A DNA stretch of 64,000 bases from Escherichia coli (GCF_048403405.1 NZ_CP183129.1), one strand, 5' to 3'; shown: positions 54,942-58,766, counted from the first letter of the stretch. A program made the numbers and translations. The notes: generated from the sequence alone by a model not told the origin.

Positions 54942-57038
54942 TTAGCGGAAATTGACGCTACGGTCGCTGGTCATGTCATACAACTGGAACTTACGCCCAA
55001 GTTGCTGACCACCGTCACGCGTCAGCGGCGTCCAGCCAATTGCCGCACGGCTGCGTGTCGGGCCAGACGAGAAGAGATCCAGCGGTACAGAGACATACAC
55101 GCCTTTGGTAAAGTCCCCTTCGCCGTACTCCTCTTTCGAAACGTTGGTGATCGTGGCATAGCCACCCACCACCACGCCGCTATCAAAGCGTTTGGCGATC
55201 TCCAGCGTGCCGCCTTTATCCCCTGCCAGATACTGCCCGACGCTCGCTTTCACTAACACATTCTGAGCGAAAGATGGCGTCCAGTAGGCGGTCAGATGTC
55301 CGGTTTTCACGCTGTAGTCGGTGAATTTCATCATATCTTTTGCACTACGCCAGTCGCGCTGTTTAACGTAGTTGGCATCCACACCAAACGCCCAGTTGCT
55401 GTCCAGCGGGCGATACAACACTTCTGCCCCCGCACCGCCAAACATGGTTTCGAGATAACCTCCGTAGACCTGGCCGTAGAAGCCGTTGCCCAGATGCTGG
55501 AAGTAGTTGGCTTGCAGGTTATTCACATAGACATCATTCTGCACATACTCGCGCACATGGGTACGAACGCGCGGTAAGTGCGAGTCCTGCGGTGGATTGG
55601 TGTAGTTAAACTTGTCGTAGTTGTTGGCAAGATTTGCAAAAAGGCTGCCAGTGGTCAGCAGATGGTCCGTCAGCCACAAATCTGCCGTTCCCATCACGCC
55701 CAGCTGATACATGTAAAAGTTTTCCGGGCCACCGACCGACTGGTTCAGCACCGGATCGATATGGAAATCAAAGCGTGATTTGTCGATATACCAGCCCTGC
55801 TCGGTGGACTGCGGAACCACTGGCTCGACGCGTTTTTGCGCCAGCGTCGTTTCGTGGCCCAACGGCTCTCCGGCGAGATGATTTTTCAGGCTGGCGACAT
55901 CGGTTTCCGTCGTCACCTGCGGCATGTTAAGGCGATTTTCCGTAATGCGGATCGTTTTGATCCCATCCGGCAGATCGTTCATCACGATCCGATTAGCACG
56001 GATGATCCCTTCGCGCGAATCACGATATTTCACCTGCTCGCCGGTAACATACAGCGTATCGCCTTTCGCCTGGATCTGTGGATCGGCAAGTCCGGCATTG
56101 TATTTCAACAGCGTTAACTGATTCGCCACCACCGAATGCTGCAAAATGGCATCCTGCGGCTGCGGTTGATATTGCGGGCGGGCGTTATCGTTGTAGGACG
56201 GGCGCAGATCGTTAAAGTTGGTGCCCAGCGTGACGCCAAACATAAAGGTGTTGCCACGTTCATAGCTAAGGTTAACGTCGGCCCAATCGGTAACGCGATA
56301 AATCGCCCCGACGTTAAACTTACTTTTTTGCTCCAGCTTCCCGGCAAAATCCTGCTGATAATTATTACCTTCATACTCCAGTTTCAGGCGCAGCGGTTGC
56401 CAGGGCGTCTGGTATTCCACGCCGCCAAACAGTGAGGCAGGACCGTGGAACATCTGGCTACCGTCGATAGATCCCGCCTGTTTGTAGCTGTTATCGCGAT
56501 AGCAATATTTGTCACTGGCTGAACAGAGCGGATTATTCACATTACCGCTGGTGCCCAGATATCCCCAGCCCAGGCCGAGCGTAAAATCGAACGGCCCCCA
56601 GGCTTTGCTGGCAACAAGATATTCCGCATCAAACAGCCCCGTACCGCCGATATCCCGCGCACCAACCGCCACTTGCGGCAGCCAGTAACTCTCTTCCCAC
56701 AAACGCAGTTTGAGATCGAAGGCTTTATCTTTATACGTTTGATCACCAGAGAACGCTTCGACGCTGCTGTACTGCCGGGTGCGCACATCGGTATAGCGCA
56801 GCGTTGTTTCCAGCCACGGGAAGAGTTGCACTGAAGCTGAGTAATAACGGTACTGATCGTTATCGCGATAGTTCAAACTCAACTCCCCTTCCCGCGCCAT
56901 GCGGGCGGTAGGCGTTTGTAATAATCCTACGCCACCGAAATCCGACTGCGACGGACCAATGGGCGCAGGATATGTTTCGCCGTAGCAAGCTGTGCTAATG
57001 CCCAGCGCCAGTAAGCTAAGCAGATGTCTTTTTTTCAT
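54942..57038 (-). CDS. yjbH: outer-membrane beta-barrel lipoprotein YjbH (GfcD-like)
   Basis: 698 aa with signal peptide and lipobox-like ISTACYG, C-terminal aromatic-rich beta-barrel terminus. Confidence 0.88.
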
Positions 57039-57775
57039 TATTGAGGTATCCGCTGCGTCAGAGTCTGAAGAATGTCGGCGTTAAGGGCATCAGGCGTCTC
57101 ACTCCAGACGGAGTCCGCGAGGCCAACATAAATAATGCTGCCGGGCATCGGCTCTACGTGACGCTTGTTCCAGTAAGCCACCGGTGCTTTTTGCGTGCGT
57201 CCGTCCGGGTAAACCACCCACGCGTAGCTGCGATCCGCACCGCTGAGCAGGTTCTGGCCGGAGAGATAGCTCGCCACGTCGCGACTTGGAGTGAATGGCT
57301 GCTTGCCAGGACGGCTGATAAGCCCGAACAACATGACCGTGGACGGCGGTGGTCCGACCCACAGCGTGTAGTTGCCCTGCAACGGCGGGTTACCGCGTTC
57401 GGCAACGCGGACGATATCGGGATCAAGATTGATTTTTTGCCTGCCCGTCACTTTCAACGCCTGAATTTGCTGGCGTAAGGCGTTAATCGCGGCGGCATCG
57501 TCGGCGCTGGAGTCTGCGGCTAGTTCTGCCAGCCGTGTCAGCAACGCCTGCTGCTGACGCAATGCTGCCGCCGTTGCCAGCTCTTCGCTAATCACCGCAC
57601 CGGGCCACCAACTGTTTGCCAGCCGTGGTTGGCCTACCAGATCGATTAAATGCTCTGCACCCGTCAGCGTTTTGGCCTCACTGCTGCCATTGCTGAATAC
57701 CTTGACGGTTCCCGCCGCGAAGACCGATGACGCCCCCACACTCAAAATCAATGCGACAATAGTTTGTTTACTCAT
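57038..57775 (-). CDS. yjbG: YjbG, exopolysaccharide-associated periplasmic protein
   Basis: 245 aa with signal peptide; overlaps yjbH start and yjbF stop. Confidence 0.85.
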
Positions 57776-58440
57776 TGTTTTGCCGCCTTGATGAGAGTGG
57801 TTTTCACCGGGAAATAATCCGCGCCGAGATACTGTTCCGACTGGCGAATTTGCCCTTCGCTGTCGATCCAGTAGCGGTTATGCCAGCGCGCCTGGTCGGT
57901 GGAGACTTCTTCGTCCAGCACGCGAACCGGGGTTTCATCGCTGCCGACTTTGACGGTATCGGTGCCATCCCATTTGAAGACTGAGCGTGCGGTGGCGTAG
58001 CGTACCTGCTGGTACTCGGTCCAGCCCATCGTGCGCGTCCAGATTGCACCATCAACAATTTGTGCGGGTTTAATCAGCGGGTCGGCAGCAAGGTTATTCA
58101 CCTCAATCAGGTTGTCGCCGCCAAGCAGAGTCTTCACCAGACGACCATGTTGTGTGACGAGAGTAGCCTGATCCTGAGTGACCCATTTTTGTTGTCCGTC
58201 TTCAGCGAAGGCCAGCACCACAAATAACTGCGGTCCGCCATTAAGCTGCATGTACTGGCTGGCGTAGGGCATATTTTGAATATCATCGTCCGTCAGCTGT
58301 ACGCCTGGCGTGCCGAACAGACTGTCCCACAGTGAATTGCCCAGCTCTTTAGTCGTGGCTGAACAGGCCTGTAATAGCAGGCAGATAAGAATGAGTGCAG
58401 GTCGCTTCACGACTCTTCTCCAGGGGGGCAGAATAACCAC
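57772..58440 (-). CDS. yjbF: YjbF lipoprotein
   Basis: Lipobox LLQAC near N-terminus; track ORF 222 aa, real start may be a few codons downstream. Confidence 0.85.
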   Translation of the reverse strand: MVILPPWRRVVKRPALILICLLLQACSATTKELGNSLWDSLFGTPGVQLTDDDIQNMPYASQYMQLNGGPQLFVVLAFAEDGQQKWVTQDQATLVTQHGRLVKTLLGGDNLIEVNNLAADPLIKPAQIVDGAIWTRTMGWTEYQQVRYATARSVFKWDGTDTVKVGSDETPVRVLDEEVSTDQARWHNRYWIDSEGQIRQSEQYLGADYFPVKTTLIKAAKQ

Positions 58441-58523
58441 ACCGGAGTGTGGTTATGGTAAATCCCTTCATACTTCAAGCCACAGATGCAATGACTCGAA
58501 TTATTTTGGGGATACATACTTTA

Positions 58524-58766
58524 TTACTGGGTACTGGTGGTCGTGGTTGTTGTGGTCCCGGTATTAGAACCATCACCGCCACCGGTTGCCGCGAGCGCGA
58601 CACCCACCGCCGAGCTTACGGTGCTGACGCTGGTCGCGGAGGAACTCCCCGCCGAAACCGACGTTGCTGCCGACCCTGCCGCTTCGCCCACCTGTACAGG
58701 TGCAGCCCACGCAGAAGTCGCCGCAAGCGCAGATATGGCAAAAATGCCATACAGAACTTTTTTCAT
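58524..58766 (-). CDS. yjbE: YjbE, Ser/Thr/Ala-rich secreted low-complexity protein
   Basis: 80 aa, signal peptide then Ser/Ala/Thr-rich tract ending [10 protein letters not shown]. Confidence 0.8.

Follow-up and report, generated by a model that had tools for sequence, protein, structure and literature searches.

The yjbEFGH operon of Escherichia coli: candidate Rcs operators, conserved hairpins, and a possible role in outer-membrane export

The 64,000-nucleotide stretch of Escherichia coli DNA analyzed here (GCF_048403405.1, NZ_CP183129.1; hereafter the window) carries four co-directional genes on its minus strand at positions 54942–58766, which are near certainly yjbEFGH, a stress-induced E. 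coli operon that belongs to the core genome and has already been described in connection with a surface polysaccharide. Of 5426 complete E. coli genomes, 5425 carry the region, and its DNA matches that of several E. coli chromosomes at 100% identity; in these, RefSeq names the genes yjbE, yjbF, yjbG, and yjbH. Relative to K-12 (b4026–b4029) there are no amino acid differences in YjbE, one in YjbF, eight in YjbG, and four in YjbH. All four products match Pfam families far above the curated cut-offs and in the expected order (PF11106 YjbE; PF11102 YjbF; PF20616 and PF06251, the N- and C-terminal parts of GfcC; PF06082 YjbH); searches of YjbE, YjbF, YjbG, YjbH, and YjbT against NCBIfam models gave no match. 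All four open reading frames and their coordinates are as the preliminary description gave them:

58524-58766, minus strand: yjbE, 80 aa (ORF list); PF11106, 5e-33; identical to K-12 YjbE
57772-58410, minus strand: yjbF, 212 aa counted from the RefSeq start (GTG 58410); lipoprotein, lipobox LLQA↓C; PF11102, 4.9e-63
57038-57775, minus strand: yjbG, periplasmic GfcC-family protein, 245 aa; PF20616 and PF06251
54942-57038, minus strand: yjbH, outer-membrane protein, 698 aa; PF06082

The genes are tightly packed at two of their three junctions, with yjbF and yjbG overlapping by 4 nt (ATGA) and yjbG and yjbH sharing 1 nt (TAATG, at the yjbG stop). The overlapping stop and start codons previously described for the whole operon are thus confined to these two junctions and do not extend to yjbE and yjbF, where the yjbE stop (58524) and the RefSeq yjbF start (GTG 58410) are separated by a 113-nt non-coding gap; the longest yjbF open reading frame, starting at GTG 58440, still leaves 83 nt. 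RefSeq annotates pgi upstream of the operon and yjbT and psiE downstream, and no Wza, Wzb, Wzc, or glycosyltransferase genes are linked to it. Two hairpins flank the operon:

59080-59102, minus strand: intrinsic terminator of the upstream gene pgi (terminator scan; 10-pair stem, then TTTTTTT)
54900-54933, no strand assigned: hairpin (inverted repeat) between the convergent stops of yjbH (minus) and yjbT (plus), followed by TTTATTCTT on the minus strand

The second is likely a two-way terminator that marks the operon end, and the presence of the first implies that yjbE needs a promoter of its own. The locus and its neighbors are common to K-12, and the promoter regions are 2 bases apart. A REP-type insert of 144 bp follows pgi in K-12 but not in this strain, so that the pgi-yjbE spacer is 498 bp in K-12 and 354 bp here. 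K-12 also carries xylE between psiE and malG; at that site this strain lacks xylE alone, and malH is intact.

The gap between yjbE and yjbF (the E-F gap) contains two distinct elements:

58411-58523, minus strand: non-coding yjbE-yjbF spacer, 113 nt (sequence and RefSeq yjbF start)
58462-58516, minus strand: copy of a dispersed intergenic repeat with an internal deletion, matching both ends of an ~130-nt element at the same site in a Citrobacter locus
58433-58456, minus strand: E-F hairpin, ATAACCACAC-TCCG-GTGTGGTTAT, a perfect 10-bp inverted repeat, followed after 22 nt by the yjbF start codon

In most genera the spacer is only 60–65 nt long. The repeat, which resembles the ERIC/IRU type, corresponds to a Citrobacter element whose median copy number in E. 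coli genomes is 10. The hairpin is present in both the MFE and the centroid structures, its core (TAACCACAC-NNNN-GTGTGGTTA) is found in 80/80 loci, and its loops are restricted to the UNCG type (TTCG, TCCG, TGCG, and TACG) in these 80 loci. The tail that follows it is ATTCTG in E. coli, which is a poor U-tract, and ATTTTG or ATTTCG in most genera.

On the question of a single transcription unit there are the F/G and G/H overlaps and the flanking terminators, yet also a conserved hairpin inside the E-F gap. Were this hairpin a genuine terminator, yjbE would be expressed mainly as a short monocistronic transcript with yjbFGH reached by read-through, giving two separable units. The stable UNCG stem with TTTT after it in most genera, the gap itself, the analogous hairpin and T-run between gfcA and gfcB, and an IS1 insertion in the gap that has a phenotype of its own (PMC8117528) all speak for this reading. 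We nonetheless think it improbable. The terminator scan does not call the hairpin in E. coli or S. arizonae, the U-tract after it is interrupted, and Ferrieres 2007 reportedly describes a single operon. All four genes are co-induced by Rcs-activating stresses to similar degrees, including similar fold-changes for yjbE and yjbF (PMC3599342, PMC5105897), and together with the poor U-tract in E. coli this makes strong termination unlikely; a literature search for yjbE with Term-seq or 3'-end mapping, and for this hairpin, found nothing.

The group 4 capsule operon gfcABCD has the same gene order and gene sizes as yjbEFGH, its B/C and C/D overlaps match those of F/G and G/H, and, as noted above, its first gap contains a hairpin and a T-run. 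The paralogy to gfc proposed in the preliminary description is borne out by alignment for three of the genes, with amino acid identities of 39% for YjbF and GfcB (3e-54), 42% for YjbG and GfcC (8e-65), and 65% for YjbH and GfcD, but it does not extend to detectable sequence similarity between YjbE and GfcA. BLASTP gives no significant alignment between the two (E = 65), GfcA does not match PF11106 at E ≤ 1, and hhalign aligns only the signal peptides (59% probability). We therefore make no claim of YjbE-GfcA homology, since BLASTP and profile comparison give no real alignment and the layout alone is common to both. The two proteins have different or no Pfam families, and the long hydrophobic stretch of GfcA is missing from YjbE. 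The operons also differ in context and control: group 4 capsule operons continue into gfcE-etp-etk (Wza, a phosphatase, and a tyrosine kinase), whereas yjbH is followed by a terminator, yjbT, and psiE, and yjb is regulated by RcsAB. Vibrio (wbfB/C/D, orf1-wbfDCB) and Aeromonas (gfcABCD) have homologous modules of three or four genes with ties to capsule or exopolysaccharide (PMC8592465), but these adjoin wza-wzb-wzc-type genes and yjbEFGH does not.

Searches of PDB sequences matched YjbF to 2in5 (YmcC; 5.7e-43) and YjbG to 3p42 (9.3e-53), and returned no solved structure for the YjbH family. The assignment of YjbF as a lipoprotein is upheld by its lipobox and its PF11102 match. For YjbH, the AlphaFold2 model (pLDDT 88.3, pTM 0.85) has two separate strand blocks (residues 52–274 and 401–669) with an alpha/beta domain between them (301–389), and the predicted protein thus has a barrel of roughly 12–13 strands at its N-terminal end and another at its C-terminal end, on either side of the alpha/beta domain. 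This agrees with the two-barrel architecture reported elsewhere (PMC8346858, PMC9603273, PMC11494523), and refines the earlier description of YjbH as a 698-aa outer-membrane barrel, of which the length stands and the single barrel is imprecise. Solved barrels each align with the model over just 150–220 of the 698 residues, and the 12-strand sugar porins KdgM and NanC match as well as FapF. Sequence identities of YjbH to the single-barrel channels KdgM/NanC, FapF, and PgaA/BcsC/PelB are 4–14%, and unlike these YjbH is modeled as a single polypeptide that unites two barrels with a periplasmic domain. A lateral gate of the LptD type, computationally proposed for GfcD (PMC11494523), would offer a plausible sideways exit for a lipid-anchored glycan from the C-terminal barrel.

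YjbE is, as previously described, an 80-aa Ser/Thr/Ala-rich secreted peptide with a poly-Thr run. Residues 1–21 (58704–58766) form a signal peptide ending AWA↓AP, and the mature peptide has 59 aa, of which 76% are S, T, A, or G. The run lies in the C-terminal tail:

58536-58556, minus strand: seven consecutive Thr codons of yjbE, T71-T77

The C-terminal 30 aa have a mean identity of 96% over 78 loci, compared with 80% for YjbF, and exactly seven Thr residues followed by ST[Q/R] are kept across genera. At the DNA level the last 14 codons take 61 different forms, and selection therefore acts on the protein. A common layout of a signal peptide, a hydrophobic Ala/Val/Gly stretch, GDG, and a Thr-rich tail ending in R or Q is seen in YjbE, GfcA, and a distant locus (L084), and a second distant YjbFGH locus (L086) has no small YjbE-like gene.

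These features raise the possibility that YjbE is itself the cargo or a primer, either exported unfolded through the N-terminal barrel of YjbH, which would be FapF-like, or modified by O-glycosylation of its Thr run, such that the 'Yjb exopolysaccharide' would be a peptide-linked, mucin-like surface product. Larson et al. raise such a role for GfcA (PMC8592465), and the exact tail, retained despite free synonymous change, and the recurrence of the layout in GfcA and L084 are in keeping with it. We hold it to be unlikely, given that L086 does without a small first gene, that KdgM and NanC fit the YjbH model as well as FapF does, and that the operon has no linked glycosyltransferase. A related and similarly doubtful proposal is that the system centers on the small first gene and not on a free polysaccharide. 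YjbE, with its invariant GDG and fixed seven-Thr tail, would then be an exported substrate or O-glycosylated carrier set on the surface by YjbH, with the E-F hairpin and a second hairpin, over the yjbE ribosome-binding site, acting as RNA devices for the dosage of YjbE relative to YjbFGH. If this were true, peptides combining a signal peptide, GDG, and a Thr tail would be a general, overlooked component of a widespread export family.

The 354-bp spacer upstream of yjbE (58767–59120) is AT-rich, as the preliminary description stated, with a GC content of 31.4%, lower than the 55% of the operon and the 51% of the window. It contains the following elements:

59017-59030, minus strand: RcsAB/RcsB-type box 1, TGAGGTTAATCCTA, at -264 from the ATG
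58977-58990, minus strand: RcsB-type box 2, TCGGAAAATACGCA, from conservation
58878-58894, minus strand: proximal half-site, TTCCAATTATCCTAAAA, with right half TCCTA and an A-tract; half-site motif TCCTAAAA
58823-58836, minus strand: invariant block TTGTGTATACTCGA with a -10-like TATACT (58826-58831), from the conservation profile and alignment
58800-58818, minus strand: 5' UTR hairpin 1, consensus fold kept in 66/67 sequences
58774-58794, minus strand: 5' UTR hairpin 2, whose 3' arm is the Shine-Dalgarno sequence GAAGGGA (58774-58780)
58963-59112, plus strand: Rfam hit, RF02053 (STnc430, a candidate sRNA of enterobacteria), scoring 77.7 bits where the gathering score is 47

Box 1 was found with a degenerate published RcsB pattern (PMC7913699) and conservation only; the full RcsAB 14-mer consensus (TAAGAATATTCCTA) has no match in the spacer with up to three mismatches. 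It has one mismatch to TN(G/A)GAN4TC(T/C)NA, and its other strand is an exact match to a weaker variant; all positions that are invariant in the RcsAB/RcsB box are preserved in it. The box is at the orthologous site in all of the ~76 Enterobacteriaceae loci examined, with T1, A3, G4, T10, C11, and A14 invariant in 62/62 distinct sequences. Box 2 never varies at T1, G4, or A5 and retains A14 in 61 of the 62; its spacing from box 1, 40 nt in this strain, is 51 nt in 61/77 loci. At the proximal half-site, TCYNAAA is conserved at about -119, TCCTAAAAT is termed the canonical RcsB right half (bioRxiv 10.1101/2025.05.13.653802), and ATCCTAAAA occurs in the whole 64 kb only here and in box 1 (0.46 occurrences expected). 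A perfect palindrome at 58903–58926 (TAAG-N6-CTTA-like) was rejected as the main Rcs box because it is not conserved outside Escherichia. Published experiments already show that yjb depends on RcsA-RcsB, with a reported loss of induction in rcsA or rcsB mutants; PMC5461412, PMC5651002, and PMC8117528 attribute this to Ferrieres 2007. The Rcs-regulated promoter elements anticipated upstream of yjbE are thus matched by conserved predicted boxes and by a dependence present in the literature, alongside the aligned Gfc paralogs.

The invariant block suggests that transcription of yjbE starts near 58819, which would place the candidate boxes at about -160 to -200 from the start, far upstream and overlapping the Rfam sRNA model. 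In hairpin 1 of the 5' UTR, one pair occurs as UG, UA, or CG and two pairs as GC or GU; in hairpin 2 all seven pairs are invariant in 67 sequences and the loop alone varies. No JUMPStart/ops element was seen by eye in the yjbE 5' UTR.

The overlap with RF02053 brings in a different account of the conserved blocks upstream of yjbE, namely that they belong to STnc430, an sRNA encoded opposite yjbE, instead of serving as Rcs operators. RF02053 scores above its gathering threshold here and also matches in 8/14 other genera, a promoter scan places a sigma70-like promoter on the plus strand just upstream of the match (58929–58956), and the match ends at a hairpin common to the pgi terminator. The arms of the main helix vary independently, however, with no covariation and with complementarity below chance: its two variable pairs are Watson-Crick in 28/62 and 19/62 sequences, and shuffle means are 33.6 and 31.6. 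Moreover, the invariant positions of the RcsB boxes never change, the plus-strand U-tract of the match is weak, and a literature search found just two papers mentioning STnc430, both unrelated, and none on its expression. We accordingly regard the sRNA as a poor prospect, and these observations suggest that the Rfam family may model conserved operator DNA rather than an RNA.

Taken jointly, the Rcs-operator reading of the spacer and the relationships of the four proteins make it probable that E. coli yjbEFGH is an RcsA-RcsB-induced operon for a putative outer-membrane export or anchoring machine, with a stoichiometry that hairpins may set. Minus-strand transcription would begin at a dedicated promoter beyond the pgi terminator, and the candidate operators in the AT-rich spacer comprise two full boxes upstream of this weak promoter, at distances of ~200 and ~160 bp, and a half-site near -63. 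Through these sites, envelope stress acting via RcsA-RcsB would switch the operon on together with the colanic-acid genes, a step that is partly shown and partly our extrapolation. By analogy with homologues, YjbH may be a two-barrel outer-membrane channel, with YjbF (a lipoprotein of the GfcB/YmcC fold) and YjbG (GfcC fold) as its putative periplasmic partners, and YjbE would be a peptide exported by Sec, disordered and rich in Ser/Thr. How much YjbE is produced relative to YjbFGH is probably governed by the E-F hairpin together with the one over the yjbE ribosome-binding site. The odds are even, in our judgment, that YjbEFGH serves to export or anchor, across the outer membrane, a surface glycoconjugate synthesized elsewhere, in the manner proposed for GfcABCD.

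The earlier remark that the secreted polymer is poorly defined agrees with the literature, in which the Yjb polymer has never been chemically defined (PMC5461412) and is likewise given as undefined (PMC11494523). If yjbEFGH were a self-contained pathway making its own distinct exopolysaccharide, as might be supposed from the extracellular polysaccharide, different from colanic acid, that overexpression reportedly raises (Ferrieres 2007, as cited in PMC5461412 and PMC8117528), enzymes of sugar polymer synthesis would be looked for among the four products. The Pfam searches matched only the YjbE, YjbF, GfcC, and YjbH families, with no glycosyltransferase, polymerase, flippase, or synthase domain, which together with the neighboring genes pgi, yjbT, and psiE favors a machine over a synthesis pathway; YjbF and YjbG match the non-enzymatic structures 2in5 and 3p42, and YjbH is modeled as a barrel protein. 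We find this pathway very hard to credit. Disruptions of yjb activate Rcs and raise colanic acid (PMC8117528), and the reported 'EPS' phenotypes could for this reason be indirect.

The literature already covers the operon, its paralogy to Gfc, its control by Rcs, and the undefined state of the polymer. The further observations made here offer testable handles on what YjbEFGH and GfcABCD move: the strong protein-level constraint on the YjbE tail, the invariant UNCG hairpin, the three candidate RcsB-type sites, and the hairpin over the yjbE ribosome-binding site. We also note that the small first gene and the control regions of yjbEFGH are unusually conserved.

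The locus at 54942-58766 is certainly E. coli yjbEFGH. Searched as a 5.4-kb query, the region has a match in 5425 of 5426 complete E. coli genomes; with several E. coli chromosomes the identity is 100%, and RefSeq labels the genes there yjbE, yjbF, yjbG and yjbH. The products differ from K-12 MG1655 b4026-b4029 by 0, 1, 8 and 4 residues, respectively, and have Pfam matches far above cut-off, with one family set per product (PF11106; PF11102; PF20616 with PF06251; PF06082); NCBIfam has no model for any of the four. The ORF list for 53500-60500 agrees exactly with the coordinates of the four co-directional minus-strand genes in the preliminary description, which is right in substance, although wrong on the gene overlaps and on a single barrel, and reports what is already known.

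Genes of the yjb locus and its neighbours
59121 (end), minus strand: pgi, upstream neighbour
58524-58766, minus strand: yjbE, 80 aa
57772 (end) to 58410 (GTG start, from RefSeq), minus strand: yjbF
57038-57775, minus strand: yjbG, 245 aa
54942-57038, minus strand: yjbH, 698 aa
54617-54895, plus strand: yjbT, downstream neighbour, an uncharacterised gene (PF17089)

Stop and start codons overlap between yjbF and yjbG (ATGA) and between yjbG and yjbH (one base), but not between yjbE and yjbF, where 113 non-coding bases separate the yjbE stop at 58524 from the yjbF GTG. Downstream of yjbH lie yjbT, psiE and malG, and a hairpin at 54900-54933, which the converging genes yjbH and yjbT share at their 3' ends, closes the operon unit.

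Comparison with the gfc locus of K-12 bears out the proposed paralogy for three of the four products. YjbF and GfcB share 39% identity (E 3e-54), YjbG and GfcC 42% (E 8e-65), and YjbH and GfcD 65% over 696 residues (E 0.0); the solved structures matched are GfcC (3p42) for YjbG and YmcC/GfcB (2in5) for YjbF, the latter a lipoprotein as described (lipobox LLQA/C). The paralogy does not extend to YjbE and GfcA: BLASTP gave E = 65 and no significant alignment, GfcA has no match to PF11106, the family of YjbE, at E <= 1, and a profile of 17 YjbE sequences aligned with GfcA over the signal peptide alone (59% probability). The two do have a common layout: a signal peptide is followed by a hydrophobic stretch of Ala, Val and Gly, by G-D-G and by a tail rich in Thr whose last residue is Q or R. 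The GfcA tail is …AVGVATLAVVAANDSGDGGSHNTSTTTSTTR. A 109-aa product preceding a distant yjbFGH-like cluster (L084:3998-4327) resembles both in having GGDGDG as well as a signal peptide, and its Thr-rich tail finishes with TTR (…GGDGDGTSASATSTATTTATSTTTSTTR); another such cluster (L086:445-581), which adjoins a cold-shock protein gene, has no such small gene. The gfc operon includes gfcE-etp-etk, whereas nothing similar lies 3' of yjbH, and the unit is closed by its terminal hairpin; yjbEFGH is therefore a paralogue of gfcABCD and not a group 4 capsule operon.

YjbH had been described as an outer-membrane barrel, but its predicted structure has two strand blocks. A search of PDB sequences returned no solved structure matching YjbH, and an AlphaFold2 model was built from 50 aligned homologues, drawn from 2653 diverse representatives collected at E <= 0.001. 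The model (pLDDT 88.3, pTM 0.85) places 12 strands in residues 52-274, an alpha/beta domain in residues 301-389 and about 13 strands in residues 401-669; the values for comparison with polysaccharide export barrels are 11.4 for PelB, 10.7 for BcsC and 10.7 for PgaA. It agrees with the two-barrel prediction already published for the YjbH/GfcD family (PMC8346858, PMC9603273) and with the lateral-gate export model published for GfcD (PMC11494523). Many distant homologues are 930-1400 aa long (P0123, P0125, P0127, P0153, P0175 and others); in these the YjbH domain begins at about residue 260-350, leaving a large N-terminal extension.

YjbE is a secreted, low-complexity product as claimed, with a signal peptide (…SAWA/APVQ) and a mature part of 59 residues, 76% of them Ser, Thr, Ala or Gly. 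It is not loosely constrained for all that. Averaged over 78 loci, identity to the window sequence is 88% for full-length YjbE and 96% for its last 30 residues (58527-58616), compared with 80% for YjbF, and the Thr run, which precedes a terminal STQ, numbers seven in almost all loci. For the final 14 codons there are 61 synonymous DNA versions; the constraint therefore acts on the peptide, and strongly.

The spacer upstream of yjbE (58767-59120) is AT-rich as noted, with 31.4% GC over 354 bp against 55% in the operon. A terminator lies 3' of pgi, and yjbE therefore needs its own promoter.

Elements of the pgi-yjbE spacer
59080-59102, minus-strand reading: pgi terminator, at the upstream end of the spacer
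59030..59017: box 1, RcsB-type element, TGAGGTTAATCCTA
58990..58977: box 2, RcsB-type element, TCGGAAAATACGCA
58963-59112, plus strand: match to Rfam RF02053 (STnc430, an enterobacterial sRNA candidate)
58929-58956, plus strand: sigma70-like promoter
58886..58878: proximal half-site, a right half-site with A-tract, ATCCTAAAA
58836..58823: invariant TTGTGTATACTCGA, including a -10-like TATACT
58800-58818: leader hairpin 1
58774-58794: leader hairpin 2

Rcs-regulated elements had been anticipated in this spacer, and a search for RcsB boxes found conserved candidates. The RcsB consensus is TN(G/A)GAN4TC(T/C)NA, and TN(G/A)GAN4(A/C)CTNA is its weaker variant (PMC7913699); box 1 departs from the consensus at one position, and its opposite strand fits the variant exactly. 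The full RcsAB 14-mer consensus is absent from the spacer at up to 3 mismatches. Among 80 Enterobacteriaceae loci fetched with YjbF as query, T-N-R-G-N5-T-C-Y-N-A has a single match at the orthologous site in all those with sufficient sequence, between positions -246 and -277 relative to the ATG. Across 62 distinct versions of box 1, T1, A3, G4, T10, C11 and A14 are unchanged and the remaining positions vary; box 2 keeps T1, G4 and A5 in 62/62 versions and A14 in 61/62, and the distance from box 1 down to box 2 is 40 nt in the window and 51 nt in 61/77 loci. The proximal half-site is conserved at about -119, and ATCCTAAAA occurs in the 64-kb window at box 1 and at this half-site only (0.46 expected). 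In a Reg-Seq preprint (bioRxiv 10.1101/2025.05.13.653802), TCCTAAAAT is described as the canonical right half for RcsB, and yjbE is among the candidate targets.

No good -35 element was found upstream of TATACT, as expected for an activator-dependent promoter. We infer that transcription starts near 58819; the proximal half-site would then lie near -63. Passages in published reports state that yjb depends on RcsA-RcsB (PMC5461412, PMC5651002, PMC8117528), and Rcs-activating stresses co-induce all four genes (PMC3599342, PMC5105897); Rcs regulation of yjbEFGH is well supported. At 58903-58926, between divergent promoter-like sites, AAATATAAGTT-ga-AACTTATATTT forms a perfect inverted repeat of 11 bp, which is Escherichia-specific and not conserved in other genera.

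The same spacer could instead be conserved as an RNA. STnc430 is matched on the opposite strand to yjbE, at 77.7 bits (gathering score 47), and again in 8 of 14 other genera; box 1 and box 2 form the two arms of the model's main helix. The variable positions of that helix do not covary, being complementary in 28/62 and 19/62 versions against shuffle means of 33.6 and 31.6, and the conservation therefore fits DNA operators better than an RNA helix. The Rfam family may be modelling operator DNA, and a plus-strand RNA from this region may be expressed too.

The leader of yjbE, about 55 nt, is almost invariant, and a consensus of 67 distinct sequences folds into two hairpins. Hairpin 1 is kept in 66/67 sequences, with one pair UG, UA or CG and two pairs GC or GU; hairpin 2 is invariant apart from its loop and contains the Shine-Dalgarno GAAGGGA, which it would sequester. 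The pattern points to possible translational control of yjbE.

The yjbE-yjbF gap contains a perfect hairpin, ATAACCACAC-TCCG-GTGTGGTTAT, at 58433-58456 (minus strand). Its core, TAACCACAC-NNNN-GTGTGGTTA, is present in 80/80 Enterobacteriaceae loci (about 4950-4990 in L004-L083), with loops of TTCG (72), TCCG (3), TGCG (3) and TACG (2); only the second loop base varies, so that every loop is a UNCG tetraloop. The gap in most genera spans 60-65 nt and consists of the stop codon, ~15 nt, the hairpin, TTTTGCCCC, GGAGAAG and GTG. The U-run after the hairpin is imperfect, terminator scans did not call the hairpin, and the searchable literature yielded no paper that describes it; at the matching position in gfcA-gfcB, a different hairpin precedes a T-run. 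We read the yjb hairpin as a partial terminator or RNA-stabilising element setting the YjbE:YjbFGH ratio. Small repeats, too, have landed in the gap. At 58462-58516 lies a copy, with an internal deletion, of a ~130-nt dispersed intergenic repeat (median 10 copies per E. coli genome) that looks ERIC/IRU-like; a full copy lies at the matching spot in Citrobacter (L031:4820-4950), and a REP-like insert is present 3' of the hairpin in several loci of Citrobacter and Enterobacter. A phenotype has been reported for an IS1 insertion in the gap (PMC8117528).

Neither the four products nor the adjacent genes include sugar-polymer enzymes. By analogy with GfcABCD, for which a similar role has been proposed (PMC8592465, PMC11494523), the best reading is that yjbEFGH, induced through Rcs, would form an outer-membrane apparatus that exports or anchors a glycoconjugate whose synthesis takes place elsewhere, in which YjbH would be the channel, YjbF-YjbG a periplasmic pair and YjbE a small exported peptide; we give this transport role a roughly even chance. 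Disruptions of yjb themselves switch on Rcs (PMC8117528), and some published phenotypes may thus be indirect.

The window strain differs from K-12 on both sides of the operon. K-12 has a 144-bp REP/BIME-type insert directly after the pgi stop codon (L002:2409-2552) that is lacking here (about 59120), which accounts for its 498-bp spacer against 354 bp in the window. K-12 and some other E. coli have xylE at the psiE-malG junction; in the window xylE is absent and the malG terminator is joined directly to the psiE 3' end (53899-53991); the malH sRNA sequence at that terminator is intact and does not differ from K-12. Upstream of lysC, at 61007-61203 (plus strand), there is a lysine riboswitch (RF00168, 99.5 bits).
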